Below, one piece after another: positions 1 to 33,248 of a stretch of 64,000 nucleotides of DNA (its first letter is position 1; each line of letters begins with the position of its first letter). The position numbers and the translations under genes are program-made. Source of the stretch: Chitinophagaceae bacterium (lineage in GTDB: Bacteria; Bacteroidota; Bacteroidia; Chitinophagales; Chitinophagaceae); NCBI GenBank assembly GCA_017882265.1, contig JADGPW010000140.1, positions 25,368 through 89,367 of the forward strand, in the 5' to 3' direction. The notes beneath the pieces were generated by a model. That model was not told the DNA's origin, did not search any database, and was given only the letters and a program-made list of their open reading frames with translations.

Positions 1-1522
1 AATCACTAGTTTGAGTAAATAAGCCAAGTGGTTTAGAAAGAATAACAATAAAAGCTCTTGGAAACAAACCAATTGCCATTATCAAAAGCATTATAGCATA
101 CATGGGAATTAGTTTTCCAAATCCGGCTTCTCCGGGAGTGTGATTAAAATGGTGTCGGGGGATACCGAGAAAAACCGACCCAAAAGCTTTTGTAAAACAT
201 AACATGGCAAGTCCTCCTATGAGAGCTAATCCAAAAAGACCGCAAACAATAGACGAAAGTAAAGCATTGTCGGAACCGTTTAAGCCTTTGAACATTCCAT
301 TATAAATAAGGAACTCTGAAATAAATCCGTTGAAAGGGGGTAAACCGCAAATGGCAAGGGCAGCAATGAGGAACAGCAATGTAGTATGAGGCATTCGTTT
401 GCCCAGGCCGCCCAATTTTTCTATATCCATAGTGTGGGTAGACTGATATACATTACCAGCCCCATAAAATAAAAGCGATTTAAAAAGGGAGTGATTCAAT
501 GTATGAAGCAAGGCGCCGGCAAATCCTAAAACAGTTAATATATAGTTTCCCTTCCCCATTCCAATACAGCCCAGGCCAATACCCATTCCGATGATGCCGA
601 TGTTTTCAATACTGTGATAGGCCAGCAATTTTTTCAGGTTATGCTGGAGAATGGCCAGCATCACTCCATAAATTCCGGATAGGATAGAAAAAAACAGGAT
701 AATGTACCCGATTATAAGGTAATCACTTTTTATCAAAAGCAGCATCCGCAAAATACCGTATATACCGATTTTAATAATGACGCCAGACATGACGCCCGAT
801 ATATGCGATGGCGCTGCCGGATGCGCATAAGGCAACCAGGTATGAAAAGGGACGAAACCGGCTTTGATGGCAAATCCAATAAAAAAACATAGAAATAAAG
901 CAACACCGGTAAGCAAAGAATTAGAAGTGGTGAAAAGAGTGATGGCTTTAAAATCATAGGAATTCATCTTCAACGCTACCCAGATAAAACCCAGCGTTAA
1001 AAGCATAATGCAAATATGCGACTGGATTAAAAAATTTATTCCGGCGTTTAACGTCTCTCTTTTATGATGTTCAAAAATAACCACCAAAAAGGAAGACAAA
1101 GCCATTATTTCCCATGCAATAAGGAAAGCTATAGTATTTTGCAGGGAGCAAATACATAGTAAGCTTGACTGTACCATTATAAAACTGATACAATGAATGG
1201 ACAAATTAGCTTTTTGTGCCCGGTACACTTTCATATAATGCAATCCGTAAAAGGCTCCGGTAATGAAAGTGAAATTGATAATTAAGATAAACCAACCTGA
1301 TAATGCATCTATACGAACAGGAATCTTACCGGTTACCAATGATCCGTGAAACAAATATTCTGAATTGACGCCGTTCAACGCCCGAAGCGCGATGATACTG
1401 CTGAGAACTGAAACTACCATTACAGCCGTTAGGGTAATCATCCCTTTCCACGGTACGCTTACAAAAGGTATAAGCAAAACAGTTAAAAAGATAATTAGTA
1501 AAAACGCTGTAATAATTTCCAT
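1..1522 (-). CDS. Proton-conducting membrane transporter subunit, NuoL/HyfB-like (3' end runs off the left window edge)
   Basis: Own translation of the minus strand from the ATG at 1520-1522 is stop-free to position 1 (MEIITAFLLIIFLTVLLIPF...). It is absent from the ORF track because it leaves the window. It is paralogous to the 666-aa neighbour (WLPYAHPAAPSHISGVMSGVIIKIGIYG, LAYHSIENIGIIGMGIGLG, HTLNHSLFKSLLF). Its ATG overlaps the upstream stop (ATGA). Confidence 0.8.
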   Translation of the reverse strand, partial: MEIITAFLLIIFLTVLLIPFVSVPWKGMITLTAVMVVSVLSSIIALRALNGVNSEYLFHGSLVTGKIPVRIDALSGWFILIINFTFITGAFYGLHYMKVYRAQKANLSIHCISFIMVQSSLLCICSLQNTIAFLIAWEIMALSSFLVVIFEHHKRETLNAGINFLIQSHICIMLLTLGFIWVALKMNSYDFKAITLFTTSNSLLTGVALFLCFFIGFAIKAGFVPFHTWLPYAHPAAPSHISGVMSGVIIKIGIYGILRMLLLIKSDYLIIGYIILFFSILSGIYGVMLAILQHNLKKLLAYHSIENIGIIGMGIGLGCIGMGKGNYILTVLGFAGALLHTLNHSLFKSLLFYGAGNVYQSTHTMDIEKLGGLGKRMPHTTLLFLIAALAICGLPPFNGFISEFLIYNGMFKGLNGSDNALLSSIVCGLFGLALIGGLAMLCFTKAFGSVFLGIPRHHFNHTPGEAGFGKLIPMYAIMLLIMAIGLFPRAFIVILSKPLGLFTQTSD

Positions 1523-3522
1523 CAGATTAATTTAAAGATGGTTCCTAAAAACACCAGCACAATAAAAAAAATGCCATACATGATATACATTTGAATTTTA
1601 CCATTTTGAATAAACCGAAAATAATTCATGGAATACAAAAGCCTGTTAATAATAGTATTAAAAATCTTTGTTACAAAAAAATCATTGTAATGGGATGAAT
1701 GTTTTCTTTCTGCAGGAAATATTTCCTGAACTGTGATTTCTTTATATTTCTTCTTTTCCAGGACAATAAAATTCAACAGCTTTCCCAATGATTTTGAAAA
1801 TGATTTACCCGTGTACTGCATTCTTGATGTCGGTACGACGTATCCGCAACCCCAGGTTGAACGGCTTAACACAGGATGTTTACCGGAAAGACTTTTTCTT
1901 ATAAAATAAATTAAAATCAGCAGCAGTATAAACAACATAGTAAATTTCCCAATAGCAGTTATACTGTTAAGTAATGAGGCCGGGATCATCCTGTTTTCCA
2001 ATGAAGCCTTCGGGATAAATTCGAAAACGATTTTATTGACGACTGAAAAATAGTATTGAGGAAACAGGCCGATGGAAAGCATGATGAGTAAAATGAAATA
2101 TTGCGGCAATCGCATGTCCAATGTAACTTCCCTGGGTGGCTTGTGTAAATGGGTTCGTGGATTACCAAGAAATATTGTTCCAAAACTTTTTGTAAAAGTG
2201 AGCATGGAAATACCTCCGATTAAGGCCAGACCTGCCAGTGAAAATATCAACAGGGTAATATAATTAATCCCGATGGATTTGATGCCAAGCAGGATGCCAC
2301 TATATAACAGAAACTCTGAAACAAACCCATTAAAGGGAGGTAGTCCTCCGATGGCCATGCCACCTACCAGGAAAAGCATAGCTGTTTGCGGCATGCTGCG
2401 TACCAATCCACCCAGTTTTTCCATATCCCGTGTATGTGTTTGCTGATACACAGAGCCCGCAGTAAAGAAAAGGAGTGATTTAAAAAGTGAATGATTTAAT
2501 GTATGTAACAATGCCCCTGCAAATCCTAAAACAATCAACAAGGTATTTCCATTGCCTATTCCTAATAACCCGAGCCCGATACCTATACCAATGATCCCGA
2601 TATTTTCAATAGTGCAGTAAGCAAGCATTTTTTTAAAATCCCGGTGCACCGCTGCGTTCAGAATGCCGTACAACCCTGTCATGATAGAAAGGATGATTAT
2701 TATTTCTCCAATGACTGTATAATCGTATTTAAGGAAAAAAATGATCCGGAAAATTCCATAAATGCCCAACTTAACAATAACGCCTGACATCACTCCTGAA
2801 ATATGGGAAGGCGCTGCAGGGTGTGCCTGTGGCAGCCATGAATGTAAAGGAATAAACCCAGCTTTAATCCCAAACCCAACGAAAAATAAAAGGAACAGCC
2901 AAAGGTTAGCATGAGTGGTGAAGTATTTTTCAATGGCTGAAAACTCAAATGAACCTTCTGAAAAATACACCCAGATGAATGCAGTAGTAAGAAAGAGTAC
3001 CCCAATATGCATCTGAACAAGATAATTAATACCGGCCTGCAATGTTGCTTTATGCTGATGCTCAAAGATGACAAGAAGAAAAGAGGAAATGGACATCAAT
3101 TCCCATACAATCAGAAAAACCAAACCATTTTGTATAATGCAAACCCACAGCATAGAAGATTGAAACAACAAAAACATTATCCAGTGCATTGAAAGATTAG
3201 CCTTTTGCTGATCATATTGTTTCATATACCCTATACCATAAAAAGCCCCGTTAATACAGGTTAAATTTATAATAAGAATAAACCAGGATGACAGGCTGTC
3301 TATATGTAGTGAGATGTTTCCAAAGACCGGAGTTTGGCTAATGACAATATCAACAGCACTTCCTGTTAAGGCTTTAACAGCGGGAATTGATGTAATAACA
3401 GCTATTAAAAGCACAAAAAGAAAATTGACCTTAGCTCTGATTGAATGTGGAAGGAATGGAATTAAAATCATCCCCGCTATTGGCAAAAGTAAAGCCAAAG
3501 AAAGTAACAGAAAGCCCGTCAT
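1522..3522 (-). CDS. Proton-conducting membrane transporter subunit, NuoL/HyfB (hydrogenase-4 component B / Mrp antiporter D)-like
   Basis: 666-aa polytopic ORF with family motifs WLPQAHPAAPSHISGVMSGVIVKLGIYG, AYCTIENIGIIGIGIGLG, HTLNHSLFKSLLFFTAGSV and GGLPPFNGFVSEF. Confidence 0.9.
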   Translation of the reverse strand: MTGFLLLSLALLLPIAGMILIPFLPHSIRAKVNFLFVLLIAVITSIPAVKALTGSAVDIVISQTPVFGNISLHIDSLSSWFILIINLTCINGAFYGIGYMKQYDQQKANLSMHWIMFLLFQSSMLWVCIIQNGLVFLIVWELMSISSFLLVIFEHQHKATLQAGINYLVQMHIGVLFLTTAFIWVYFSEGSFEFSAIEKYFTTHANLWLFLLFFVGFGIKAGFIPLHSWLPQAHPAAPSHISGVMSGVIVKLGIYGIFRIIFFLKYDYTVIGEIIIILSIMTGLYGILNAAVHRDFKKMLAYCTIENIGIIGIGIGLGLLGIGNGNTLLIVLGFAGALLHTLNHSLFKSLLFFTAGSVYQQTHTRDMEKLGGLVRSMPQTAMLFLVGGMAIGGLPPFNGFVSEFLLYSGILLGIKSIGINYITLLIFSLAGLALIGGISMLTFTKSFGTIFLGNPRTHLHKPPREVTLDMRLPQYFILLIMLSIGLFPQYYFSVVNKIVFEFIPKASLENRMIPASLLNSITAIGKFTMLFILLLILIYFIRKSLSGKHPVLSRSTWGCGYVVPTSRMQYTGKSFSKSLGKLLNFIVLEKKKYKEITVQEIFPAERKHSSHYNDFFVTKIFNTIINRLLYSMNYFRFIQNGKIQMYIMYGIFFIVLVFLGTIFKLI

Positions 3523-6495: not shown

Positions 6496-7119
6496 CTATA
6501 TCAATTTATTCTCCACGGCTAATTTGATAAGTGTAGCGGTATTCTTTACATTCAGTTTTGCCAATAAATTTTTCCGGTGGCTGTCTACTGTAAAAGGGCT
6601 GAGAAATATTTTTTCAGCGATCTGCGGATTTGTGTATCCTTCGGCGATCAGTTCCAGCACTTCTTTTTCCCTGGGGGTCAACACCGGTAATGCCGATTTG
6701 GAATATTTCTGGTAATCGGCTAATGCCTGTCCAACTTCCCCGCTGAAAAAAATGTTCCCGTCCTTCACGGCGTGAATAGCGGCGATCAGGTCTTCTTTGG
6801 ACGAATTTTTTAATATATAACCCGAAGCACCATTCTCCATCATCTTTTTTATATACAAGCCCTGGTTGAATGTGCTTAACCCCAGGATAAAAACACCAGG
6901 ATATTTTTCTTTCATTACCGCACATAATTCCACTCCATCCATCCCCGGCATGCTGATGTCCATTAATACAATATCGGCCATATTGTTTACGAAAAAGCCC
7001 AGGCAGGAGGCTGCATTCATAGCATGTCCTGCCCATTCAATGCCATTTACATTTTGCAGTAAGGAATGGATCCCTTCAATCACCACAGGATGATCATCCA
7101 CGATAAATACACGAATCAT
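6496..7119 (-). CDS. Two-component response regulator, NarL/LuxR family
   Basis: REC domain (IRVFIVDDHP...IVLMDISMPGMDG) plus a LuxR-type HTH (LTPREKEVLELIAEGYTNPQIAEKIFLSPFTVDSHRKNL). Confidence 0.95.
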   Translation of the reverse strand: MIRVFIVDDHPVVIEGIHSLLQNVNGIEWAGHAMNAASCLGFFVNNMADIVLMDISMPGMDGVELCAVMKEKYPGVFILGLSTFNQGLYIKKMMENGASGYILKNSSKEDLIAAIHAVKDGNIFFSGEVGQALADYQKYSKSALPVLTPREKEVLELIAEGYTNPQIAEKIFLSPFTVDSHRKNLLAKLNVKNTATLIKLAVENKLI

Positions 7120-7120
7120 A

Positions 7121-9106
7121 TTATATATTAAATTCTATATTGACCAGTGTCCCTTTACCCGGACCTGTATGAATAGCCATTTGACCTTTTAAATATTCTA
7201 CCCGGCTGCGGACATTGACAAGGCCGGCCCCTTTACTATCTTCAGCGAGACCAGGATCAAATCCTTTCCCGTTATCCTCTACAACTACATTCAAACGATC
7301 TCCCTCCCGAATAAGTTGCACGAAAGTTTCTGTAGCCCCTGCATGTTTAAGAGTATTGTTCAATAATTCCTGCACAATACGGTAAATGATTATTTCAATG
7401 GACTTATCCAACCTGGTTTCCATGCCAAGTGACTGGTATTTTACCGTGATCAATTGTGCCGAATTGAGCATATTGCAATACTCCTTCAATGCTTCCTCCA
7501 AACCAAACTTTGACAGCATTTCCGGCATCATATTATGCGCCACCCTGCGCAATTCTTTAATGGAAGTATCGATCATGTCCAATGACCGTTCAAAAACAGC
7601 CATGTTATCCGGGGTAATAATTAAATTGTCTTTCATATTGCTCAGGGAAAATTTTACACCTGATAATAAACCGCCTAAACCATCGTGCAGGTCCTTGGCA
7701 AGCCGGCTTCTTTCCTCTTCCTGTCCTTTCAGCATGGAATCAACGGCAACTAATTGCTTATCTTTTTCCAGCTCACTGATGCGCTGCTGTTGTAATTCCG
7801 CTTCTTTTTTTGTGAGCATTTGCCGGTTACGGATATTGCGATAGATAAGAAATCCCGTCATCAGCAGGACGGCAATGGATCCAACCAGGATGATATTCAG
7901 AGTTGTTTTTTGTTTAATAGATAACAATTGCAGTTGTTTATCTTTTTGCAACTGGGCAATTACCAGTTGCTTTTTTTCATTCTGGTATTGTGCTTCAATA
8001 TCGGCTACCTTTTCACTGGTCTCCACTGTAAACAACGAATCACTCAGGATCAGGGTTTTTGAAAAGTATTCGCTGGCGGGTTTGTAATGACCGGCTTGTT
8101 GCTCGATCATTGCCCTTGTCTTGTATATTTCTTTCAGATCGGCCCGAGCCCCTACCCCCATCGCTAATTGTTCTGCTTTAATAATATAAAGTAAAGCAGA
8201 ATCTTCAAGGTTCAATTTATGATATACCTGTGCCAGCATGGAAAAAGAAGTACATAAATGATATTGATTGCCCATTTTCAATACATACTGATGTCCCTCC
8301 AGGTAATTACTTAAGGACGGCTGATATTGTTTTAGCTGGAAATAATAATCACCCAGGTTATCATACACCGTGGCAATTTGCTCTATATCTTCTCCTTTCT
8401 TTGCCAAAGGCAAAGCCTGTTGTAATAGTTCAAATTGTTTTCCAGGTTGCTGAAGAAGACCGTAGGTATTAGCCAGGTTTAGCAATGCATTTACCGAGGA
8501 ATAAGGATCGCCGATCTGTAGCGACAGCGCCACCGCTTTATTCCCATATTCAAGCGCTTTAATGTATTCTTTCTGATCGTTTAATAATGAATTGATATTG
8601 GAATACAATGCCGGCAAACGGTTCTTATCCGCACAGGTTTCCCATAAACGGGCGGCCTGCAGGTAATAGTCAATAGCTTTTACGCGATCATTTTTATGTA
8701 AATAGACATTCCCGATATTCGCTGTGATCCTGGCTACTTTTAATGTATCATTTAACATCCGGGCTACCGTGATGGCCTGTTCAAATGTCAGTACAGCGCT
8801 GTCCATTTTGTTTAGCTCAATATAGCAGACGCCAACATCGTTCAGGGATGATAACACCAGGGAATTGTTCTTCATTTGTTTACTGAGTGCCAGGGCCTGT
8901 TGGTAATAAACAAAACTTTTTTTAGTAGCAGTCGCTTCTATGGCTTCGCCAATGGCTAATAGTTTTCTTACTCTTACTGAATCATTGGCAGCTTTATTTA
9001 ATTGCCGGAGCAAGCTGTCCGGAACATTTTGCCCATGAATACCATAGCCGCAAACCAACAGTATCAGCGTCAACACAGAAAGCGAACAGGACTTAAATAG
9101 TTTCAT
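7121..9106 (-). CDS. Sensor histidine kinase with N-terminal TPR-repeat region (HisKA_3 / HATPase_c)
   Basis: TPR-like repeats over ~380 aa, one TM (ILVGSIAVLLMTGFLIY), a coiled coil, the H-box AKDLHDGLGGLLSG and an ATPase region (VEDNGKGF...GAGLVNV). The ORF-track start at 9166 is TTG. The ATG at 9106 gives the signal-like MKLFKSCSLSVLTLILLVCG. The stop lies 1 nt from the regulator start. Confidence 0.9.
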   Translation of the reverse strand: MKLFKSCSLSVLTLILLVCGYGIHGQNVPDSLLRQLNKAANDSVRVRKLLAIGEAIEATATKKSFVYYQQALALSKQMKNNSLVLSSLNDVGVCYIELNKMDSAVLTFEQAITVARMLNDTLKVARITANIGNVYLHKNDRVKAIDYYLQAARLWETCADKNRLPALYSNINSLLNDQKEYIKALEYGNKAVALSLQIGDPYSSVNALLNLANTYGLLQQPGKQFELLQQALPLAKKGEDIEQIATVYDNLGDYYFQLKQYQPSLSNYLEGHQYVLKMGNQYHLCTSFSMLAQVYHKLNLEDSALLYIIKAEQLAMGVGARADLKEIYKTRAMIEQQAGHYKPASEYFSKTLILSDSLFTVETSEKVADIEAQYQNEKKQLVIAQLQKDKQLQLLSIKQKTTLNIILVGSIAVLLMTGFLIYRNIRNRQMLTKKEAELQQQRISELEKDKQLVAVDSMLKGQEEERSRLAKDLHDGLGGLLSGVKFSLSNMKDNLIITPDNMAVFERSLDMIDTSIKELRRVAHNMMPEMLSKFGLEEALKEYCNMLNSAQLITVKYQSLGMETRLDKSIEIIIYRIVQELLNNTLKHAGATETFVQLIREGDRLNVVVEDNGKGFDPGLAEDSKGAGLVNVRSRVEYLKGQMAIHTGPGKGTLVNIEFNI

Positions 9107-9253
9107 GAATGTACAATATGGGTAATCCTCGTAAAGATTGCCATTCTCAATCACAAAATCAAACAATCCAATTAAAATACCCTTTTCGGGTGATTGGAAC
9201 CGGATTCAGTAGGAATCACTGTTTCGGGGGATAGGGAGGATGAGCTAAGTAAT

Positions 9254-9261
9254 TAAATTTG
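9254..9261 (+). promoter_or_regulatory. Candidate Bacteroidota -7 promoter box (TAAATTTG)
   Basis: Matches the TAnnTTTG consensus, 38 nt upstream of the ATG at 9299. Confidence 0.35.
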
Positions 9262-9298
9262 AAACATTCATTTGTTAGACTCCTCAATACACTTCTAT

Positions 9299-9640
9299 AT
9301 GAGAAAGGAATCTGCATGGCAAAAAATTAACTTAGTTGCTACTATTATGATAACTGGTTTAGCCAGCCAGGCACAGCAACAATTCACTCAAATAGTTACC
9401 ACTCAAAACAGGAATTGCAATTCGGTTTGTTCAGTGCTTGATATTCCCGCACTCGCTAACAACACAGCCGCCATCATATTGGCAACTCCGGTTACAACCA
9501 ATGGTGTGAACCCGAATCCACACCCCTTCGATGCTTATTATATGTATCTGAACAAATGGAGTATCCATAACCTGGATGGAACAGCCATTGGCGTGGGAGC
9601 CCTATTCAAGGTAGAGTATAGGGTAAATCGGCTGGCTTAA
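9299..9640 (+). CDS. Hypothetical secreted protein
   Basis: The ORF-track start at 9272 is TTG. The ATG at 9299 gives MRKESAWQKINLVATIMITGLASQAQQ (signal peptide). No domain recognised. Confidence 0.55.
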   Translation: MRKESAWQKINLVATIMITGLASQAQQQFTQIVTTQNRNCNSVCSVLDIPALANNTAAIILATPVTTNGVNPNPHPFDAYYMYLNKWSIHNLDGTAIGVGALFKVEYRVNRLA

Positions 9641-9696
9641 ATGTTTCTATATCGGGGAAGAAAACAAATGAAATAATCGATAAAAAAGTTTTGTAT

Positions 9697-11439
9697 ATGA
9701 AAATTATTTTCACTCTCTTATTAATTACTGCCATTATGCAACCCGCTATTGCCCAGCGGGAAACATTTGATATTGCTACCTACACCCCGCCCAAAAACTG
9801 GAAGAAGGATGCCAATACGGGAGTGGTCGCCTATACAGATATCAATTCCAGCACGGGTGGTTTCTGTATATTGGCCATGTATGCCTGTTCGGCAAGCCTG
9901 GGTGATGCGCAAAAAGATTTTAGCGTAGAATGGAAAGATCGGGTAGTAACCCCCCATCATGCGGAAGCCAATCCAAAAACAGAAATAGAAACCACACCCG
10001 ATGGATGGAAAGTAGTTTCCGCGGCTGCTCCCATTAAACTTCAGGGTCTTGATGCGGTTGCCATCCTCGCCGTTTTCAGCGGCTTTGGAAAAAAATTCAG
10101 CGTGATGACAATGCTAAATGATCAATCATATACAAACGGGGTAGATTCCCTTTTGAAGAATATGAAATTAAATAAGGCAGGAACCGCCCCTGTTTTACAA
10201 ACAAATATTCCAACGATAACCAGGACGAATGAAGCAAATGGACAATTTGGTTCGGTGATGTATGCAACACCCGCCGGATGGAAAGTGACAAAATACCCGG
10301 ATGGCGATATCCTGACCCCGGCTGACCTGCCAAAGGATGAATTCATGGAAATATGGGTACATCCTTCCCTGAGTTTTTCAGGTACCATGGAACAGGCTTT
10401 GCAAAAAAGTTATGATGAGACGGCGGGAAATTTGAAGGCTACGAAAATGAGCGATGTCAATGGCGGTAATTATAATAAGGAAGCCGTAAAAATATCATTC
10501 AGGGGTTGGGAATATATTCGTTGCAGCGGGGGGATAAAAATGGGCGGCGGCGAGTACCCGCCCGAATACGGTCTTGACCTTTTTGTAATAAAAGTGAATG
10601 GACGGTTTGAAAGAATATCGATTGTCAAATCAAGAAAAAGCTGCAGCTATTCCACGTATTATCCATCCGACCGTCGAAAATATCATAATGCCATTGAGAA
10701 TTTTTTATTCTCCCTGCAATTTTCCGATTGGAAAGAACCAGTGATGAAAGCCGGTATATTGAAAGGTGATGAAATTACCGGTGTCTGGCAGGGTATTGCG
10801 ATGTCGGTAGGAGTATCAAAACCGGGTGCTGGGCTGGGGGCTGAGTTAAAAGGAAAGCAACTCATTTTCTTTTCAAATGGCCAGGCCTTTTTTGGAGATA
10901 ATTTTCCTATGGAAGGACTGGATGAAATAAACACCTGGGTAATGGCGGAGAACAACCGGCGTGACTGGGGAACCTATACTTTCAGCAATGGCAGTGGTGT
11001 GTTGAAACTGCCGTATGCTGAGATCCCCCTCAAGATGGGAAACGGTCAACTCGTTATCACCACTAATAAAACCGACCATAACTTTATTAAACTAAATGCT
11101 GTTGATGGCGCAAGGTTCAATGGTGCCTATGCTTTAAGCAGTAAGACTTTCCTGGGAGAGGAAACCGGGAAAACGCCTTTGATCCATTTTACCGCAGACG
11201 GACAATTTACAGATAACGGAGCCCTAAAGATCCTGGATCATGAAATAATTGATTGTATAAACACGGCGAAAGATCCTGGCTCGGGTACCTATGAAGTAAA
11301 AAATTATTCGGTACTATTCAATTATACTGACGGGAGAAAAATAAAGATCGCTTTCCTTGGATCTGATTACGACAAAAGGAACCCTGGTCCCGCCACACTT
11401 TCGATGAGTTCAAATGAGGATATTATGAAAAGACAATAG
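9697..11439 (+). CDS. Hypothetical secreted protein (~580 aa)
   Basis: The ATG at 9697 gives MKIIFTLLLITAIMQPAIAQ (signal peptide). It is a long uninterrupted ORF with no domain recognised. Confidence 0.7.
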   Translation: MKIIFTLLLITAIMQPAIAQRETFDIATYTPPKNWKKDANTGVVAYTDINSSTGGFCILAMYACSASLGDAQKDFSVEWKDRVVTPHHAEANPKTEIETTPDGWKVVSAAAPIKLQGLDAVAILAVFSGFGKKFSVMTMLNDQSYTNGVDSLLKNMKLNKAGTAPVLQTNIPTITRTNEANGQFGSVMYATPAGWKVTKYPDGDILTPADLPKDEFMEIWVHPSLSFSGTMEQALQKSYDETAGNLKATKMSDVNGGNYNKEAVKISFRGWEYIRCSGGIKMGGGEYPPEYGLDLFVIKVNGRFERISIVKSRKSCSYSTYYPSDRRKYHNAIENFLFSLQFSDWKEPVMKAGILKGDEITGVWQGIAMSVGVSKPGAGLGAELKGKQLIFFSNGQAFFGDNFPMEGLDEINTWVMAENNRRDWGTYTFSNGSGVLKLPYAEIPLKMGNGQLVITTNKTDHNFIKLNAVDGARFNGAYALSSKTFLGEETGKTPLIHFTADGQFTDNGALKILDHEIIDCINTAKDPGSGTYEVKNYSVLFNYTDGRKIKIAFLGSDYDKRNPGPATLSMSSNEDIMKRQ

Positions 11440-11565
11440 GGGGCTGTGGAATATCCTTAACTCCGCCCGGTTCCTTTGGGTACTGATTATTGAACTTGTC
11501 ATGTGATCACCGGGAGACCGGGCGCAAAGAAGATAATGATGGCATAAATATTTAATAAAGCTAAC

Positions 11566-13647
11566 ATGAAAAAAAACTCAATTCTTCTGTCTTTTCTGAC
11601 GGTAACAGTTTTTGCCAATGCCCAAAATGTCGGTATCGGGACTTCTACACCCTTGCAAAAACTGCATGTAGAAGGAGCCACTTTTTTAAATGGTAATGTG
11701 GGTATTGGCATCAGCACAGTGGTATTTCCATTAAGTTTTGCCCCGGCTCTTGGAGATAAAATTTCTCTCTGGAGCAATTCCACCAATAGTTATGGGTTTG
11801 GCATTCAAAGTTCTTTATTACAAATTCATACGGATATATCGGCTGCAGATATTGCTTTTGGCTATGGCTCCAGTGCTGCATTGATTGAAACAATGCGCAT
11901 AAAAGGAAATGGCAATGTTGGTATTGGTATCAGCAATCCTTTATTTAAGCTCGATGTAAGAACGGGGAGCATTAATACTGATTCGGTTTATCGTATTGGC
12001 ACCATTACCGTGCTTACGACGCCTGACTATGGCAATCTTTTTATAGGAAAATTTTCCGGCAGGGACAATACAGGTACTTATAATACATTCAGTGGCTATC
12101 AAACCGGTTATTCTAATACAACAGGTGCAGGAAATTCATTTTATGGCCAGGCAGCAGGTTTCTTCAGCACATCAGGTGATGACAATTCTTTTTTTGGCCG
12201 GGACGCAGGTTATGCTAATACTTCAGGTAGTTTTAATTCTTTTTTTGGAACTGGCTCTGGAGCGGCCAATACGACGGGTTCTGTAAATTCTTTTTTTGGA
12301 CACGACGCCGGTCGCTACAACACCACAGGAAATAATAATTCATTTTTTGGCGAGGATGCCGGTAGTGAAAACACAATAGGTGTATACAATTCATTTTTTG
12401 GTGCGAACGCCGGTCAATTTAATACGGAGGGTTTATATAATTCATTTTTTGGCTTTTCCGCTGGTATGTTCAACTCAACCGGAAATAACAATTCATTTTT
12501 TGGCTTTTACGCCGGCCGTGCCAACACAACAGGCAGCGAAAATTCATTATTTGGCCTCAATGCGGGTTATTCCAACACGATCGGGTTAAAGAATTCCTTT
12601 TATGGATTATCTGCCGGTTCTTCAAACAATTCAGGTAGTTATAACTCTTTTTTTGGTCATGAAGTTGGTTACGCCAATACCACCGGGAATTACAATTCCT
12701 TTTTTGGCCAGAATACTGGTCACGACAACACGATCGGTGAGTACAATTCTTTTTTTGGCCTGGGGGCCGGATCCAAAAACTATTCAGGAAATTACAATTC
12801 TTTTTTTGGCCTGGGGGCCGGAAACGGGAACACTACCGGTCAATTTAACACGTCAAACGGGAGCTTTTCTTTGCACACTAACATTTTCGGTTCATACAAT
12901 ACGACGATGGGCTACAATTCAGATGTATTTACCGCTTCACTTACTAATGCAACGGCCATTGGGGCGAATGCAAGAGCTGATTGCAGTAATTGCCTTGTAC
13001 TAGGCTCTGTATTTGGGCTTAATGGTGCCACATCTGGTGTAAATGTAGGCATCGGCACAACCAACCCCCTGGTCATTTTACATGTGTTGCAGGGACATTC
13101 CGGTAACGTGAGCCCATTTTCTCCCCTGGTTGTTGAAAGCAATACGAATACTTATATCAATTTATTAAGTCCCGATGCAAATGAAACAGCCATCCTGTTT
13201 GGCAAGGCAGAGAATGCTGCCAGTGGCGGCATTGTGTATAACAACGTAAATAATCTAAATGGTCTTCAATTCAGGCTGAATGGCAATTCAACCAAAATGG
13301 AGCTCTATCCCAATGGTAATGGATGGTTGCAGGGAATACTCGTTCAGCTTTCTGACCTGCGGCTAAAAAAAGATATTCAACCACTGCAGAACTCTTTACA
13401 AAAAATCACACAGCTCAACGGTTATAATTATTATTGGAAGAATGAAAATGCGGATAACACTATGCAAACAGGCGTACTGGCGCAGGAGGTCCAAAAAATA
13501 TTTCCGCAGCTGGTGAAAGAAGATAAGCAGGGAATATTGGCGGTTAATTATACCGGTCTGATACCTGTATTAATTGAAAGCATTAAAGAACAGCAAAAAC
13601 AAATTGAAAGACTAAATAAAATGATGGAGAAACTACTGAAACAATAA
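11566..13647 (+). CDS. Tail-fibre-like surface protein with 17-aa repeat fibre and C-terminal Peptidase_S74-type intramolecular chaperone domain
   Basis: Signal peptide, then the shared module [31 protein letters not shown], then about 16 copies of an NSFFGxxAGxxNTxGxx repeat. The C-terminus is LSDLRLKKDIQPL...LNGYNYYWKNE...GVLAQEVQKIFPQLV...VNYTGLIPVLIESIKEQQKQIERL, typical of the endosialidase-chaperone domain. Confidence 0.85.
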   Translation: MKKNSILLSFLTVTVFANAQNVGIGTSTPLQKLHVEGATFLNGNVGIGISTVVFPLSFAPALGDKISLWSNSTNSYGFGIQSSLLQIHTDISAADIAFGYGSSAALIETMRIKGNGNVGIGISNPLFKLDVRTGSINTDSVYRIGTITVLTTPDYGNLFIGKFSGRDNTGTYNTFSGYQTGYSNTTGAGNSFYGQAAGFFSTSGDDNSFFGRDAGYANTSGSFNSFFGTGSGAANTTGSVNSFFGHDAGRYNTTGNNNSFFGEDAGSENTIGVYNSFFGANAGQFNTEGLYNSFFGFSAGMFNSTGNNNSFFGFYAGRANTTGSENSLFGLNAGYSNTIGLKNSFYGLSAGSSNNSGSYNSFFGHEVGYANTTGNYNSFFGQNTGHDNTIGEYNSFFGLGAGSKNYSGNYNSFFGLGAGNGNTTGQFNTSNGSFSLHTNIFGSYNTTMGYNSDVFTASLTNATAIGANARADCSNCLVLGSVFGLNGATSGVNVGIGTTNPLVILHVLQGHSGNVSPFSPLVVESNTNTYINLLSPDANETAILFGKAENAASGGIVYNNVNNLNGLQFRLNGNSTKMELYPNGNGWLQGILVQLSDLRLKKDIQPLQNSLQKITQLNGYNYYWKNENADNTMQTGVLAQEVQKIFPQLVKEDKQGILAVNYTGLIPVLIESIKEQQKQIERLNKMMEKLLKQ
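12082..12897 (+). repeat. In-frame tandem repeat, period 51 nt (17 aa), about 16 copies
   Basis: AAT TCN TTT TTT GG recurs at 12133, 12184, 12235, 12286, 12337, 12388, 12439, 12490, 12541, 12592, 12643, 12694, 12745 and 12796. That is exact 51-nt spacing, in frame with the CDS starting at 11566. Copies at both ends are degenerate. Confidence 0.85.
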
Positions 13648-13665
13648 TTCTTTCATCAATACTAA

Positions 13666-15090
13666 ATGAAAAAATATATATTATTTCTATCCCTGCTTTC
13701 AGTTACTTTTTTTGCCTATGCCCAAAACGTAGGTATTGGTACCTCTACTCCCTTGCAAAAACTGCATGTGGAAGGAACCACATTTTTAAATGGTAATGTG
13801 GGTATTGGGATTGCTATTCCTCTTGCCAGGCTGCATGTAAACGACAGTAGTGTATTATTCGCTGCTACTGGAGATATACCTGTGCTTCCGGGATTAATTC
13901 CCTTAAATGGTGCAGGGAGAAGATTGATGTGGTACCCCGACCTGGCGGCATTCAGGGTAGGGTTTGTCACCTATGATCAATGGAACCAGAATAATATCGG
14001 GAAATATTCTTTTGCTGCTGGAAATAGTACCATTGCTTCCGGGAATAATTCAACTGCTATGGGCTTTATGACAGGAGCTTTCGGTAATAATTCTACTGCA
14101 TTAGGTAATACTACAACAGCTTCAGGATTTAGTTCAACTGCTTTAGGTGGATCAAGTATTTCTTCCGGTAGTATTTCAACTGCTATGGGAACGAATACAG
14201 AAGCTTCCGGGTATGCATCTACCGCCATGGGAGAAACAACGATTGCTTCGGGTACTGTAGCAACAGCAATAGGTGGTGCCACCAAAGCCAGTGGTAATTA
14301 CTCAACAGCAATGGGTTATGCCGGGGAAGCTAACGCTGAGTATAGTATTGCTATTGGCGAATATGTTAAAGCTAATGCATGGAACTCAATTTCATTTGGC
14401 AGTTACAACGATCCTATTCTATCATCTCCCACTTCCAGTTGGATATTAACGGAACCACTATTAATAGTAGGTAACGGTACCAGTTTTTTTGATAAAAAAA
14501 ATGCATTGGTTATTTTAAAAAACGGCAACACCGGCATTGGCATCAATAACCCCAATGCCCCGCTTGCTTTTGCCAATACCACCGGCAAAAAAATCAGCCT
14601 CTATGAAAGCTCGGCCAATTCACAGTATGGTTTTGCTGTTCAGGGTGGGCAATTGCAATTATACAGTGATGCTGCAGCCGCCAAAATTAGTTTTGGCTAT
14701 TATACCAGTGATGTTTATACAGAACGGATGTACCTGAATAACAGTACAGGCATTTTAACAGTTGCCGGTACCAATTACCCTTCTGATGCCCGGTACAAAA
14801 AACAAATTACCCCGCTGCAAAATCCCCTGGATAAAATTATGGCTATTAACGGGGTTGAATATTTTATGCGCACAGATGAATTCCCCGCTAAACATTTTGA
14901 TACCGGTTTGCAGGTCGGCCTTATTGCGCAGGAAGTGGAAAAAGTACTGCCCCAGGTGGTGCAAACAGGTACAGATGGTTATAAAGCCATTGATTACGCA
15001 AGGGTAGTTCCCTTATTGGTAGAAGGGATTAAAGAGCAGCAACGACAAATTGATGAGTTAAAGAAAATGGTGGAAAGACTACTAAAATAA
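13666..15090 (+). CDS. Tail-fibre-like surface protein with YadA-head-like (Hep_Hag-type) repeats and C-terminal Peptidase_S74-type chaperone domain
   Basis: It has the same N-terminal module as the previous gene. About 95 nt are near-identical around GCCCAAAA..TTGCAAAAACTGCATGT..AATGGTAATGTGGGTATTGG. Repeats of the form xSTAMG/xSTALG..TxASG span 14014-14409. The C-terminus is [13 protein letters not shown]...INGVEYFMR...[15 protein letters not shown]...[24 protein letters not shown]. Confidence 0.85.
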
Positions 15091-15114
15091 TAATTGAATA
15101 ATTAATTAATTAAA

Positions 15115-16131
15115 ATGAAAAAGAAATTATTGCTCCTGAACTTCCTGACTGTCCCATTTTTTGCACCTGCACAATATGTAGGTATTGGGACCACTACGCC
15201 ATTAACCAACCTACATATCCGTAACGGAGCATCCGGTGCTACGCCATTTGCTTTTTCGCCGCTGGCAGTTGAAAGCAATAGCCACACGTATATTAATTTG
15301 TTAAGTCCTGCTGCCTTTGAAACAGCCATATTGTTTGGGCAACCCGGCAATGCAGCCAATGGAGTACTGATGTATAATAATGTAAGCACTCCAAATGGTT
15401 TTCAATTTAGGAATAATGGCAATGTGACCAGAATGGTTATTGATAATTCAGGCAGTGTGGGTATTGGTCTCGTGACCCCGAATTCCAGCGCATTATTAGA
15501 TATAAGCAGCACCATAAAAGGATTTCTTCCTCCACGAATGAGTATGACAGAGAGGGATGCCATTGCCACACCTGCTGCGGGATTAATATTGCATTGCACA
15601 GATTGTATACCTGCAGGGCCTTATAGTTACAATGGCGCTGCCTGGATATCTATGACCTCCTCCGTTACAAGTACTGCTTATACCATTGGCCAGTCTGCAC
15701 AGGGTGGAATAGTATTTTGGGTGGATGACTACGGTCAGCATGGCCTGGTTGCTTCTACCGGAGATGAAAGTGCAGGGATACAATGGTACAACGGTACAAG
15801 TGTTTTTTGCAACCATATAAGGGCAGATGGTATTTATATAGGTCAGATCAACACCGATAGCATTATTGAAAAGCAAGGCCCTGGTTCTTATGCTGCCCAG
15901 GTATGTGCTAACTACCTGGGAGGAGGGTACGGTGACTGGTATCTGCCATCATTCGAGGAATTAACACTATTGTATAATCAAAGGTTGGTGGTTGGCGGCT
16001 TTTCAGGAATATATTGGAGTTCTACAGAGAGCAATATCGATAATGCCTATTTCCGGACATTCTCAGGGAACGGTACAGGAGCGGGTTCTAAGGCATTTCC
16101 AAATAGAGTCAGGGCTATTCGAAAGTTTTAA
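15115..16131 (+). CDS. Surface protein with tail-fibre-like N-terminal module and DUF1566 (Lcl C-terminal-like) domain
   Basis: The N-terminus [17 protein letters not shown]...[29 protein letters not shown] parallels an internal segment of the 693-aa protein (NVGIGTTNPLVILHV...[29 protein letters not shown]). The C-terminus [18 protein letters not shown]...[15 protein letters not shown]...YWSSTE resembles DUF1566. Confidence 0.8.
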
Positions 16132-16234
16132 TTTATAAAATAATAATGTAACAAGGTTCTCTGCGGGAAAGAAAAAGAAAACAATAATGCCTTCAATCAG
16201 CGATCATACTAAATCAACGCACTTTATTGATTGC

Positions 16235-16284
16235 GACTTACTTCATCTGTTCTGAAATCCTTGTTCCTCTGTTCGATATTCATT
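16235..16284. repeat. Half copy (right-arm type) of the GAATGTCGAA/TTCATCTGTTCGATATTC intergenic repeat family
   Basis: GACTTACTTCATCTGTTCTGAAATCCTTGTTCCTCTGTTCGATATTCATT aligns at about 85% with 63777-63826. It lies between convergent genes and touches the cytochrome c stop codon. Confidence 0.6.
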
Positions 16285-16765
16285 AGAGATTTAAGGCCGG
16301 TTTTACTTCGCCTCTATGACAGGTTGTGCAGTTAATGATGGCGGGTGAACTTTTCAGGCCCTGGATATTTTTTAACAGATCAGTATTGATTGTATTTGAC
16401 ATAGCAGCCATTTGCCTCGTAATTTCTTTTTGTTGTTTTTCTTCTGAAGAAAAATCGGTTGTATTATGACAATGTGCGCAACTGATCCCCAACGCGCGGC
16501 TATAGCCAAATTGCATAACTCTTACTAAGCGGCCGGCAGGTATTTTTAGCATTTTAATATTTTTGAAAACAGAATCGGCTCTCATATTCTCTTTTCCTTT
16601 TATGGCTTCCAGCACCTGGGCTGCATATTTTGCCCTGTCTTTTTCCAGAGAGTCCTCGATCACCTGATTTTGAGTTGATGGGCTGGCATCCCTTTTATTA
16701 TCAAAGGAAGAAATGATGATCGTGATACAACTGATAACCAGGAAGGGGATAAGTAGCTTTATCAT
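16283..16765 (-). CDS. c-type cytochrome, two haem-binding sites
   Basis: Signal/TM N-terminus and two CxxCH motifs (CAHCHN, CTTCHRG). Confidence 0.8.
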   Translation of the reverse strand: MIKLLIPFLVISCITIIISSFDNKRDASPSTQNQVIEDSLEKDRAKYAAQVLEAIKGKENMRADSVFKNIKMLKIPAGRLVRVMQFGYSRALGISCAHCHNTTDFSSEEKQQKEITRQMAAMSNTINTDLLKNIQGLKSSPAIINCTTCHRGEVKPALNL

Positions 16766-17519
16766 ATTTCTATAATTTATATAAAATGAATGTAGCTAAT
16801 AAATATTCTTAAAACATAAAATAAATGATGAGCTGCATTCATGGTCCATTATCATTTCCCCAATAAAAGTCGCTTAAGCCGGTTTTTGTGGTACTTATTG
16901 CAAATAACCGACCCTGGATGGCTGATATAGATACCCGGATATTTTTGTCGGACGGTAATCTGCCTATTTAGTTTTATAAATTTCCAATCCTGCTTCATCC
17001 AATCGTAACTATCCTGAGGGACAATCGCAACCTTTATTTTTTGCAAGGTTTGTTTCCTAAAAAAACAATTCTTTTATTTTTTTATGCCCTGTTTGTAACC
17101 GTTGTAATTAATATTAGTAGAATTGAATTGATGCATTGGCCAACATAACTTCTCAGTATGGGTGCATTGAGATTTGTTAAACAAACGCCAATTCAATATT
17201 TAATAACACCGGCACCGGTAAAAACAGACCTACATTACTTTATGGCATTTGCTTTTAGACAGGAACATTTGTAATAATTATACTGTCAGTTTCGGACTCG
17301 CATAAAGTTTTACTAGATCCTCCCCGGAAAACAAATCAATTGTTGTTCAGACCCTTTTAAAAGAAACAACGTATCCATTTTTGTGATCGAGAGATGTTAT
17401 TAGATCCCACCCTTATTGAAATTGATTGATTTGAGTTGTAGCCTATCCTTCCCGATGAATTCCTCTTTTCATGAATGAACAAAATATACATACACAAACC
17501 AAAATCAAAAATCAACATT

Positions 17520-18257
17520 ATGAAAAAAGCAATTCTACTCCTGCGTGCAGCCTTCATGCTTCTTGTATTTGTTTCCTGTGCCGGGAAATCGAAGAAAAAT
17601 GACCGGGCTGTGGCTGTTGTACCTAATAAATTGGATAATAAAGCGCGATTATCACCACCCGAACAAGCTGTCGTAAATTTCAAGAGCATCAAAATTGGCA
17701 AACAGGTCTGGATGGCCGAGAACCTGAATGTAAGTACCTACCGGAATGGCGACTCGGTGCTCCAGGTACAAAACGCAGAAACATGGAACAATTTAGAGAC
17801 CGGAGCCTTTTGTTTTTATGAGAACAAGGTAGCAAACGGCTCAAAATATGGCAAGCTATACAACTGGTATGCAGCGAACGATCCCCGTGGCCTGGCACCA
17901 AAGGGCTGGCATATACCCAGCGATGCAGAATGGAAACAGCTTATTGATTATTTAGGGGGAGAAATTGAAGCCAGTAGAAGATTGAAAAACAACAGTGGAT
18001 GGAATGAATGTGATGGAAAGTCCGGAAATGGCAATAATAACACCGGATTTTCAGCTTTACCAACTGGTTTCCGTGACTTCTTCGGGCCTTTCAACTCGAT
18101 TGGTTCGTATGCTCTATGGTGGAGTGCTAACGAGGATGCTATTCATACAAATGATGGCATATTCCGTTGTGTGTGTTACAACTGCAGCCGTGTTTTTCGT
18201 AATAATTTTACCAAGCGACGTGGGATCTCCGTGCGTTGTATTAAGGACCCCGATTAG
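17520..18257 (+). CDS. FISUMP-domain (Fibrobacter succinogenes major paralogous domain) lipoprotein
   Basis: The ATG at 17520 gives MKKAILLLRAAFMLLVFVSCAGK (lipobox). Family motifs are GKQVWMAENLNV, WYAANDPRGLAPKGWHIPSDAEWKQL, FSALPTGFR, YALWWSA and GISVRCIKD. Confidence 0.85.
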   Translation: MKKAILLLRAAFMLLVFVSCAGKSKKNDRAVAVVPNKLDNKARLSPPEQAVVNFKSIKIGKQVWMAENLNVSTYRNGDSVLQVQNAETWNNLETGAFCFYENKVANGSKYGKLYNWYAANDPRGLAPKGWHIPSDAEWKQLIDYLGGEIEASRRLKNNSGWNECDGKSGNGNNNTGFSALPTGFRDFFGPFNSIGSYALWWSANEDAIHTNDGIFRCVCYNCSRVFRNNFTKRRGISVRCIKDPD

Positions 18258-26388: not shown

Positions 26389-27384
26389 ATGCAAACAGCT
26401 TCATATCAAAAGCGGATCCATATTGCGGAAAATATTCATACCACCGATTGTACGGAGGTCAGCATATTGAAGGCCCTCGCTTATTTTGATATATTTCAGT
26501 ACCCCCTGACAAATAAGGAAATAAAACAGTACCTGGATAAACCGGTAACTGATAATGAACTGGAGAGGGCTATTCACCGCTTGGTGGAAGATGCCACTAT
26601 TTTCCGGATTGCAGATTTTTATTCATTGCAGGATAATTTGTTCCTGGCGGAGAAAAGAGCTGCAGGAAATTTGCGGGCTGAAAGATTGCTGCAAAAAGCC
26701 GCCAGGATCGGACGGTTCCTTTTTCAATTTCCATTTGTAAGAGCGATCGGTATCTCCGGCTCTTTATCTAAGAACTTTGCCGATGAAAAGGCCGACATCG
26801 ATTTTTTTATTATTGCAAAATCAAACAGGCTTTGGATTGCAAGGACATTCATGCATATTTTCAAAAAATTCACTTTTTGTACCGGCAACCAGCATATGTA
26901 TTGTATGAACTACTACATAGATGAAGAATCGCTGGGGATAGAAGAAAAAAATATTTTTACGGCTCTTGAAATAAAAACCCTTTTACCCGTATGTGGAAAA
27001 ACAGCGATGGAGTGTTTTTTTGCTGCCAATAACTGGACGAATGATCTTTTACCGGCCTGTAACTTCCGGCAACAAGTTCGACAGGAACCAAGGCTATCCT
27101 GGCTGAAACAGTTTATCGAATGGATCTTCGATAACAAAATGGGTAATCGTTTCGACGATCACCTTGCAGGAATCACGAGCCGGCGCTGGAAAAAGAAAGA
27201 AGAAAAAGGGAAACTCAATGAAAAAGGACAGCCGATGGGCCTGATCACCGGGAAACATTTTGCCCGGTCTAACCCTGATTCTTTCCAGGAGAAAGTGCTT
27301 TCGGTTTACAGCAGGCAACTGTCCACATTGGGATCGAAGTTGCCACAGTGGTTTGATGAGATCAGTCTTTCTTTCTCAGCGTAA
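26389..27384 (+). CDS. Hypothetical protein; possible winged-helix plus nucleotidyltransferase-fold domain
   Basis: The N-terminus ILKALAYFDIFQYPLTNKEIKQYL is wHTH-like. GISGSLSKNFADEKADIDFFII fits the G[SG]-x(9-13)-DxD pattern of Pol-beta-type NTases. This is a motif-level call only. Confidence 0.55.
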   Translation: MQTASYQKRIHIAENIHTTDCTEVSILKALAYFDIFQYPLTNKEIKQYLDKPVTDNELERAIHRLVEDATIFRIADFYSLQDNLFLAEKRAAGNLRAERLLQKAARIGRFLFQFPFVRAIGISGSLSKNFADEKADIDFFIIAKSNRLWIARTFMHIFKKFTFCTGNQHMYCMNYYIDEESLGIEEKNIFTALEIKTLLPVCGKTAMECFFAANNWTNDLLPACNFRQQVRQEPRLSWLKQFIEWIFDNKMGNRFDDHLAGITSRRWKKKEEKGKLNEKGQPMGLITGKHFARSNPDSFQEKVLSVYSRQLSTLGSKLPQWFDEISLSFSA

Positions 27385-29649: not shown

Positions 29650-29683
29650 ATGTTTATATTAATAGCCAGAAATAGAAAGATAT

Positions 29684-29772
29684 GGAATTGGTAATTTGGA
29701 ATTTGGAATTGGGCCTTGATGCGGAATGATCCGAATGCACTGAGGATTCCCTAATTCCAAATAACTAATTCC
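29684..29772. repeat. Intergenic hairpin element with self-similar arms (GGAATTGG-type words)
   Basis: Left arm GGAATTGGTAATTTGGAATTTGGAATTGGG (29684-29713). Right arm CCCTAATTCCAAATAACTAATTCC (29749-29772). The two form an imperfect inverted repeat around a ~35-nt loop. Confidence 0.7.
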
Positions 29773-29797
29773 TTTTCGCCCTAGCCGGCAAAAAAAA

Positions 29798-31622: not shown

Positions 31623-31654
31623 GAATGTTTATTTTAATTGACCCTGTTCGATAT

Positions 31655-33157: not shown

Positions 33158-33248
33158 AACTCTTTCAGAACGAAATCAAAACACAGGGGGTTGCCTTCTA
33201 TTCTTTGTTCTTTATGCTTATTTTTAGCACAATTACTCAAGATAGGAT

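Follow-up and report, generated by a model that had tools for sequence, protein, structure and literature searches.

Why would a Chitinophagaceae bacterium carry, side by side, three genes whose products resemble phage tail fibres? The genes, here called g1, g2 and g3, lie in a 64,000-nucleotide stretch of contig JADGPW010000140.1 (assembly GCA_017882265.1), which we refer to as the window. An earlier note, made from the letters of this stretch, had read them as host-encoded, cassette-built surface fibres that share one attachment module. We find it probable, at roughly 60%, that g1-g3 encode host fibres that are exported through the Sec pathway and belong to a phage-tail-fibre-like kind of mosaic trimeric adhesin; both the trimeric state and the surface location are ones that we infer. 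Related loci and proteins are designated below by handles beginning with L and P, respectively.

Exported fibres in a non-phage context

All three products begin, as had been described, with a Sec-type signal peptide ending in A-x-A that is followed by Q-(N/Y)-VGIGT..P...LH(V/I). The g1 leader, MKKNSILLSFLTVTVFANA, consists of an MKK n-region, a hydrophobic core (Kyte-Doolittle 2.49) and an A-x-A before Q. The leaders of g2 and g3 end in FAYA and FAPA, with cleavage predicted after each. Signal peptides occur not only in g1-g3 but in approximately 90% of 240 relatives. Additionally, the conservation extends past the signal peptide in other genomes: in 109 of 120 g2 relatives the signal peptide ends in small-x-A and is followed by Q-NVGIGT..P.ARLHV at a median position of 20, so the shared start is more than a leader sequence. 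An alternative N-terminus, Q-S-x-A-I-N-T-D-G-S...LDVKS..KG.L.PR.T, is of the PTL_trimer type.

Every open reading frame (ORF) of at least 150 aa in the 64-kb window was scanned against Pfam, and no capsid, terminase, sheath, baseplate, integrase or other virion families were found. Nine related loci likewise contain no phage, tailocin or injection-system genes, which extends the original remark that no phage-particle genes lie nearby. The signal peptides are incompatible with assembly onto cytoplasmic phage-like particles, and together with the non-phage context they support the view that the fibres are host-encoded. We rejected the possibility that g1-g3 are tail fibres of a prophage, tailocin or extracellular contractile injection system at this locus, as there is no virion or contractile-tail gene cluster and signal peptides are present.

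Domain architecture

The distal domains that had been assigned to the three products from the sequence stand, with an adjusted repeat count for g1 (Table 1). In g1, Pfam places Peptidase_S74 (S74) at aa 596-651 (E 7.7e-19, 68.2 bits against a cut-off of 22), and this domain has sequence matches in the PDB to 6f45, a phage long-tail-fibre distal subunit, and to MyRF (7dc3, 1.5e-4). The sixteen NSFFG repeats reported earlier resolve into 15 strict N[ST][FL]xG units at an exact 17-aa spacing between aa 173 and 427, or approximately 16-18 units when degenerate flanking copies are counted. A period of 51 was also found by Tandem Repeats Finder. The array presumably folds into a stalk of the beta-helix or beta-roll type.

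In g2 both the YadA-head-like repeats and the S74 domain were recovered by Pfam. YadA_head matches five times (E 2.2e-15), and the repeats have PDB sequence matches to BpaC (7o23, 1.2e-17) and BoaA (3s6l). The S74 match covers aa 373-432 (E 2.8e-15, 56.8 bits against the same cut-off of 22) and finds 6f45 at 5e-11, while S373, D374 and K378 are invariant across 40 homologues. The AlphaFold2 (AF2) monomer has a mean predicted local distance difference test (pLDDT) score of 76.9; the YadA-like roll (aa 110-290) is modelled very confidently (>93) and the S74 domain moderately. Foldseek matches to this model include the BpaC head (1.5e-5), the MyRF ICA domain (7dc3, 4e-5), CbpF, the endoNF ICA domain and, weakly, fibres of Bdellovibrio.

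The g3 product ends in a DUF1566/Lcl-like domain. Lcl_C matches aa 217-336 at E 1.6e-6, although its 28.8 bits fall under the Pfam cut-off of 34.9; the NCBIfam model adhesin_Lcl matches at E 3e-12 (45.7 bits against an equivalog cut-off of 500), and a PDB sequence search matches the C-terminal domain of Legionella Lcl (8q4e, 7e-9). The fold agrees: the modelled head superposes on 8q4e with a TM score of 0.84 and a root-mean-square deviation of 1.6 Å (Foldseek E 3.5e-10; mean pLDDT of the AF2 monomer 79.8). An identical protein, P0121, carries precomputed Pfam assignments to PF26696 (PTL_trimer) and PF07603. The PTL_trimer segment of g3 (aa 112-179) also matches hypothetical proteins of Leptolyngbya phage Lbo-JY46 and of an uncultured 735-kb phage at 44-47% identity. 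These matches in a cyanophage and a jumbo phage indicate that phages share the module independently of S74.

The family is large. There are more than 3000 relatives of g2 at E <=1e-5, a lower bound given that the 8000 candidates with the most shared words were scored. Named examples come from Ferruginibacter or other Chitinophagaceae and are annotated as 'tail fiber domain-containing protein'. The relatives of g3 number more than 1100 and mostly combine PTL_trimer (PF26696) with Lcl_C.

Table 1. Features of the fibre array and the genes immediately beside it. Positions are those of the window; aa ranges refer to the encoded protein.
Feature	Position	Strand	Description
g1, mosaic S74-type fibre	11566-13647	+	693 aa; signal peptide, 23-aa unit, module B, 17-aa repeat stalk, module C, S74 chaperone
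g1 signal peptide (aa 1-19)	11566-11622	+	predicted signal peptidase I (SPase I) site between ANA and Q
N-terminal peptide common to g1 and g2 (30 aa)	11623-11712	+	one 23-residue repeat unit and start of the next
g1 module B (aa 42-113)	11689-11904	+	beta-rich; normal position just before S74; module hidden Markov model (HMM) E 1.8e-22
g1 17-aa (51-nt) array	12082-12860	+	NSFFG-x2-AG-x2-NTTG-x2; 14 DNA copies at 51-nt spacing
g1 module C (aa 494-580)	13045-13305	+	homologous to first domain of g3
g1 S74 chaperone/self-cleaving domain (aa 596-693)	13351-13644	+	motif S596-D-L-R-L-K601
g2, archetypal family member	13666-15090	+	474 aa; signal peptide, 23-aa unit, family first domain, YadA-like beta-roll, neck, module B, S74
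g2 YadA-head-like 14-aa repeats (aa 113-250)	14002-14415	+	pLDDT 93-98
g2 S74 domain (aa 373-474)	14782-15087	+	motif S373-D-A-R-Y-K378
g3, non-S74 fibre	15115-16131	+	338 aa; signal peptide, module C, PTL_trimer segment, Lcl_C (C-type-lectin-like) head
g3 Lcl_C/DUF1566 head (aa 186-338)	15670-16128	+	pLDDT 90-98
Small exported DUF7452 protein	9272-9640	+	DUF7452 E 7e-9
582-aa exported protein	9691-11439	+	no Pfam, PHROG, NCBIfam or PDB match
TPR-HisKA_3-HATPase sensor kinase	7121-9166	-	Pfam; divergent from the fibre array
Response regulator, kinase partner	6496-7119	-	Pfam; receiver and GerE/LuxR helix-turn-helix

The shared N-terminal motif as a repeat unit

The three proteins had been proposed to share one attachment module at their N-termini. 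Beyond the signal peptide, the sole element common to g1-g3 is a motif of approximately 16 aa, and the first domains that follow it are three different ones: module B in g1, the family first domain in g2 and module C in g3. The motif is not confined to the start of each protein. GNVGIG..P...L is found four times in g1 (aa 22, 45, 118 and 494), three times in g2 (aa 22, 45 and 289) and twice in g3 (aa 22 and a looser copy at 116), and it opens internal modules in all three, a recurrence that the earlier note had missed.

The 30-aa peptide shared by g1 and g2 is exactly one 23-aa tandem repeat unit and the start of the next. Units of this length occur in tandem in relatives. P0290 (484 aa) has approximately nine 23-aa units, as read by eye, and then a C-terminal domain that Pfam does not match, and in a 472-aa fibre of L028 the units start at residues 282, 305, 328 and 352. 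The g2-type first domain (aa 44-112) is itself present internally, two or three times, in 86 of the 120 g2 relatives. An exhaustive HMMER search with g2 aa 20-115, comprising the motif unit and the first domain, matched 17,310 representative clusters (50% identity) at E <=1e-3 and 3,387 at E <=1e-10. Some of the matching proteins are 2,000-5,500 aa long, with as many as 44 stretches matched in one protein. A census with module HMMs was noisy at first, as all of the models contain the motif, and was redone with coverage and E-value filters. We also observed a 2721-aa protein (P0242) with dozens of GNVGIG units, no S74 domain and no Pfam match.

Given the tandem 23-aa unit, the widespread repetition of the motif and the internal occurrence of the first domain, the shared N-terminal motif is a structural repeat unit and not a specific anchor. 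The idea of a single attachment module is not upheld, since the only common element is itself a repeat unit.

At the DNA level, g1 and g2 had been described as sharing a near-identical stretch of approximately 95 nt, taken as a sign of recent duplication or gene conversion. The similarity is there, with 86 of 98 nt identical (87.8%) between 11615-11712 and 13715-13812, but 'near-identical' overstates it. Of 12 nucleotide differences within codons 19-49, 11 leave the amino acid unchanged, which argues for purifying selection on the peptide rather than very recent conversion and leaves a recent duplication or conversion doubtful.

Exchange of modules within and between genomes

The cassette architecture, with a constant end and variable remainder, is real, family-wide and more extensive than had been proposed. 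Within the locus, module C links g1 to g3: g1 aa 494-580 and g3 aa 22-109 are 63% identical (BLASTP E 8e-28), as the earlier note had recognized, and the DNA at 13117-13300 is 74% identical to that at 15253-15436. Module B, in turn, links g1 to g2, with 49% identity between g1 aa 42-112 and g2 aa 286-357, a relation that had escaped notice.

The pattern of a constant end with a variable middle or tip also holds between genomes, where many permutations of the modules are seen. Blocks that match parts of g1-g3 at 72-83% identity occur in relatives that are otherwise unrelated in sequence. For module B of g1, internal segments of the ~750-aa proteins P0059, P0013 and P0040 show 74-80% identity; for module C of g1, an identity of 72-79% is found at the N-termini of the Lcl-type proteins P0128 and P0145. 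Conversely, S74-type fibres, P0007 and P0134 among them, have N-termini that match the first 122 aa of g3 at 72-75% identity. The g1 protein and the 472-aa protein of L028 are 75% identical over the N-terminal 130 aa and 76% identical in S74, with unrelated middles. Proteins of 567-780 aa with different fronts end in a stretch that is 78-83% identical to the last ~200 aa of g2.

The homologous blocks begin at the motif, and the DNA encoding it is repeated at 11688, 11907, 13788, 14520 and 15451. These two features make it plausible that the motif DNA could act as a recombination junction. Invertible cassettes of the shufflon type were rejected: the longest inverted repeat in 9000-17500 is 28 nt at 71% complementarity, and the genes lie on one strand.

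Two further arrays illustrate the use of the modules. L001 (13786-21986) contains a second kinase-regulator pair and, after it, genes for an RCC1-repeat protein and for two module B proteins without S74, which indicates that the modules are also used outside S74 and Lcl fibres. The densest array, L025 (1-16320), has eight fibre-family genes in 16 kb: five S74 fibres, two PTL_trimer proteins, one of them with Lcl_C, and a 623-aa DUF7452 protein that lies within the array. No two-component system is present within 10 kb of it.

Comparison with known fibres

Foldseek matches to fibre structures of Bdellovibrio led us to a description of 21 chromosomal mosaic adhesive trimer (MAT) fibres in Bdellovibrio bacteriovorus (Caulton et al., Nat Microbiol 2024, PMC10769870). 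In all MAT fibres, the signal peptide leads into a conserved N-terminal domain of approximately 130 aa. Thirteen have S74 tips with SDxxxK, and the other eight end in TNF-like, C-type lectin or novel sandwich domains. The paper also describes a capping-loop motif, V-G-G/N-pi-x-x-P-x-x-x-L, that is also present in MyRF. In addition, Table S3 of the paper includes MAT-like proteins of 417-854 aa from the Fibrobacteres-Chlorobi-Bacteroidetes (FCB) group, namely from Saprospiraceae, Salinivirga, Kordia, Patiriisocius (with an invasin/intimin-type tip) and Dokdonia (S74-like, 481 aa).

The proteins studied here share several of these features. Like the MATs, g1-g3 are chromosomally encoded fibres with signal peptides, and they end either in S74 with SDxxxK (SDLRLK in g1, SDARYK in g2) or in an alternative tip, the lectin-like Lcl_C of g3. 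Swapping of tips is seen in both sets. The motif described above, V-G-I-G-(T/I)-x-x-P-x-x-x-L, occurs two to four times per protein and is closely similar to the published MAT motif but one residue longer, the two having been compared by sequence only. With a profile of the g2 family, the neck-plus-motif region matches the MAT fibre Bd2133 (8ond) at E 7.7e-6.

There are also differences. The Bdellovibrio fibres are approximately 1000 aa long, whereas g1-g3 are shorter; the g2 stalk is a roll of the YadA-head type; and the Chitinophagaceae host is not a known predator. The TPR-HisKA_3 and LuxR neighbours found here do not appear in the sections of the MAT paper used for this comparison. Nevertheless, g1-g3 fit the MAT-like kind in layout, termini and motif, and on sequence grounds would be a Bacteroidota counterpart of the Bdellovibrio MATs, a known kind and not a new one.

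Other known systems resemble parts of the three proteins. Phage tailspikes and fibres such as K1F endosialidase (3gw6), S16 gp37 (6f45) and T5 pb1 have the same C-terminal S74 domain with a Ser/Lys dyad on beta-structure and are trimeric in phages. However, g1-g3 have signal peptides and no virion genes nearby, and the similarity lies largely at the S74 end. This is where PHROG tail-fibre families mostly match g1-g3 (E down to 1e-28), with two PHROG virion-structural families matching the 17-aa repeat region of g1 (aa 224-400). Phage records likewise match g2 mainly at S74, with a best coverage of 51% and none at >=80%.

The 14-aa repeat roll and neck-like connector of g2 resemble those of YadA, BpaC, BoaA and UspA1. 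In contrast to these proteins g2 has no C-terminal YadA anchor barrel, and its trimerization would presumably be driven by S74. NCBIfam models of trimeric autotransporter adhesins score 16-30 bits against cut-offs of 600-3000, and we did not retain this assignment. The head of g3 has the Lcl-CTD/DUF1566 fold, and both g3 and Lcl are exported proteins of a stalk-plus-head form. However, g3 lacks the collagen-like repeats and N-terminal helix of Lcl, its stalk consisting of module C and PTL_trimer, and its NCBIfam score falls far below the cut-off, so an assignment as an Lcl collagen-like adhesin proper was rejected. MyRF shares the S74/ICA fold but is a eukaryotic membrane-bound transcription factor from an unrelated context. 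A PADLOC scan for anti-phage defence systems gave nothing for the fibres.

A literature search on S74 or tail-fibre proteins with signal peptides in Bacteroidetes, on TPR-HisKA_3 kinases and on PTL_trimer found nothing.

The adjacent kinase and regulator

A feature that is new here is that the fibre loci usually adjoin a TPR-HisKA_3 kinase and a LuxR-type regulator. A scan of genome contigs with g2 as a single protein gave only 17 loci, mostly distant or truncated. The survey of gene neighbourhoods covered nine independent loci with 10-kb flanks. A HisKA_3 kinase, usually of the TPR type, adjoins the fibre genes in seven of the nine, a raw count that is not scaled to genome-wide kinase density. 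These are the window, L001, L002, L021/22, L023, L027 and L028, the last with two pairs; L025 and L026 are without one. A LuxR/GerE regulator accompanies the kinase in six of the seven, whereas in L021/22, which is cut by the locus edge, only kinases were seen. The order kinase, regulator, S74 gene is also seen in L009, a distant locus from a metagenome-assembled genome. Orthologues of the response regulator that are 84-85% identical adjoin fibre genes in L002 and L028.

The sensor region is far more variable than the catalytic domain. In a comparison of the window with L002, L023, L028, L034-L037, L042 and L103, the TPR sensor is 22-25% identical where the catalytic domain is 75-86% identical, and a similar sensor (59-65%) is kept in only a few loci.

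The two exported proteins encoded between the kinase and g1 (Table 1) may be co-transcribed with g1-g3. A plausible Bacteroidetes-type -7 box, TAAATTTG, is found at 9254-9261, directly before the DUF7452 gene, and is the sole + strand copy upstream of the array. The box search found none directly upstream of g1. A scan for sigma-70 promoters and terminators was uninformative, with counts equal to those expected from shuffled sequence. Relatives of the 582-aa protein (25-51% identity) adjoin homologous TPR-HisKA_3 kinases in L037, L040, L043, L063 and L067, and another is present in the fibre locus L023. The protein belongs to an uncharacterised family that is tied to kinase and fibre loci. It is a reasonable supposition, but no more than that, that g1-g3 are regulated by the neighbouring kinase and regulator.

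Observations against the proposed reading, and alternatives

Several observations weigh against placing g1-g3 among MAT-like surface fibres under the control of the adjacent kinase. None of the three proteins has a type IX secretion system (T9SS) sorting domain of type A or B, a lipobox or an autotransporter barrel detectable with Pfam or NCBIfam; the absence of a T9SS C-terminal domain had been pointed out before, and the C-termini are S74 or Lcl_C. The MATs share one N-terminal domain of approximately 130 aa, in contrast to the three different first domains of g1-g3. The AF2 monomers are poor at residues ~19-62 of g2 and across module C of g3 (pLDDT 36-66 for the two together), although this is expected if these segments fold only as intertwined trimers. 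Finally, the association with the kinase is not reciprocal. No S74 gene was found beside the kinase in 80 metagenome loci with kinase homologues, 37 of them with full upstream flanks, and fibre-family genes occur in only two kinase-centred loci, L040 and L066. The closest kinase orthologue, in L029, adjoins a small outer-membrane (OM) beta-barrel protein instead.

Further kinase homologues show the same breadth of partners. The closest orthologues face small OM beta-barrel proteins (a cluster found in seven loci), and others face relatives of the 582-aa protein or TPR proteins. The survey of kinase loci thus reduces the proposal of a kinase dedicated to the fibres to a one-directional association. 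Therefore, the kinase family generally adjoins arrays of exported or envelope proteins, and the fibres are one kind of cargo.

The missing anchor bears on two accounts of where the proteins act, both of which we consider rather unlikely. In the first, the fibres stay in the periplasm or in outer-membrane vesicles and act inside the envelope or as vesicle cargo. SPase I signal peptides that come with no T9SS domain, lipobox or barrel are compatible with such a fate, and several Bdellovibrio MATs end up in a vesicle deposited in the prey (PMC10769870). However, YadA-like and Lcl-type tips are known from extracellular proteins, and the MATs were also shown on the predator surface before the prey is encountered. 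The second account, which we hold to be similarly improbable, has the fibres released to the medium, unanchored, as soluble lectins, agglutinins or antagonistic proteins. It would explain why g1-g3 have no dedicated anchor and no common N-terminal domain, and Legionella Lcl, a trimeric lollipop-shaped protein, is secreted and only peripherally attached (PMC11162425). Against it, g1-g3 contain no toxin or enzymatic domain and no immunity-like gene lies beside them.

A more far-reaching proposal is that fibre arrays with their adjacent kinase and regulator form an inducible surface-fibre system that uses an undescribed, T9SS-independent outer-membrane route or anchoring for folded trimers, in which the fast-evolving periplasmic TPR sensor may read a signal related to the fibres, such as a released S74 fragment or unassembled fibre N-termini. 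We regard this as speculative and unlikely.

That g1-g3 are remnant or domesticated tail fibres supplied in trans to a prophage, tailocin or contractile injection system elsewhere would account for the strong PHROG matches and the phage S74 domains, but is highly improbable, given that the signal peptides lead out of the cytoplasm where such particles assemble, the phage matches lie mainly at the S74 end and cover at most 51% of g2, neither the 64 kb nor the nine related loci contain phage or injection-system genes, and the family, whose clusters number more than 17,000, has giant multi-repeat members.

A possible course of assembly

If g1-g3 are exported mosaic trimeric adhesins, the following course would fit the features described. 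The three genes, which lie on a single strand with gaps of 18 nt (g1-g2) and 24 nt (g2-g3), would be expressed together to judge from this spacing, probably along with the two upstream exported proteins. Synteny suggests that expression is probably controlled by the divergent TPR-HisKA_3 kinase and the LuxR-type regulator. The precursors would cross the inner membrane via Sec, and cleavage by SPase I after A-x-A would leave an N-terminal Gln.

By analogy with the S74 family, this domain in g1 and g2 would trimerize and template the folding of the upstream beta-structure. It would then cleave itself at Ser596 (g1) or Ser373 (g2) through the Ser/Lys dyad, which is present in both. The g3 protein, which has no S74, presumably trimerizes through its PTL_trimer segment and its Lcl-type head, the latter being trimeric in Legionella Lcl. 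The mature fibres would be chains of modules, each opening with a loop motif (G/N)-V-G-I-G-x3-P-x3-L. The 17-aa-repeat stalk, the YadA-like roll and the C-type-lectin-like head would be the binding parts, and they probably bind glycans or the surfaces of other cells or particles. The repertoire would evolve by exchange of modules at the motif junctions.

Genes surrounding the array

GC content and skew are unremarkable across the fibre region, and no tRNA genes are found in the window. To the left of the array lie genes for a NuoL-type subunit, a methyltransferase and a Crp regulator, followed by the response regulator and kinase discussed above. The right flank encodes a cytochrome c, a FISUMP lipoprotein, a GH31 enzyme, an ammonium transporter, a polysaccharide biosynthesis cluster of approximately 27 kb, an OmpA protein and a SusC/SusD pair.

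The FISUMP (Fib_succ_major) lipoprotein-like gene is located at 17475-18257 (+, E 1.6e-48), and relatives of it occur near kinase homologues in L063 and L065. The polysaccharide cluster (22710-49819), of exopolysaccharide or O-antigen type, encodes many glycosyltransferases, a Wzy-like polymerase and an ABC exporter. It is unusual at 27362-36728, where two B12-binding radical SAM enzymes, one radical SAM/SPASM enzyme and four class I methyltransferases are encoded. A 751-aa ORF at 51853-54108 (+) has no Pfam match and contains HEMLH, an HExxH-like motif, near its C-terminus; it may encode an unclassified metallopeptidase. This ORF sits where the window is richest in A (AT skew up to 0.195).

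Significance

Bacteroidota carry a very large family of exported, tail-fibre-like proteins that is experimentally untouched and known at NCBI just as 'tail fiber domain-containing protein'. The locus described here is a compact example of how its members are constructed, with modules joined at a loop or repeat motif and ending in S74 or a lectin-like head. The family is tied to the Bdellovibrio MATs by sequence, beyond analogy. Two questions are sharpened here: how the fibres exit the periplasm in a phylum with T9SS as the known route, and whether they are controlled by neighbouring two-component systems. Answering them would inform the study of adhesion, of predation and other interactions between cells, and of the engineering of modular binders.

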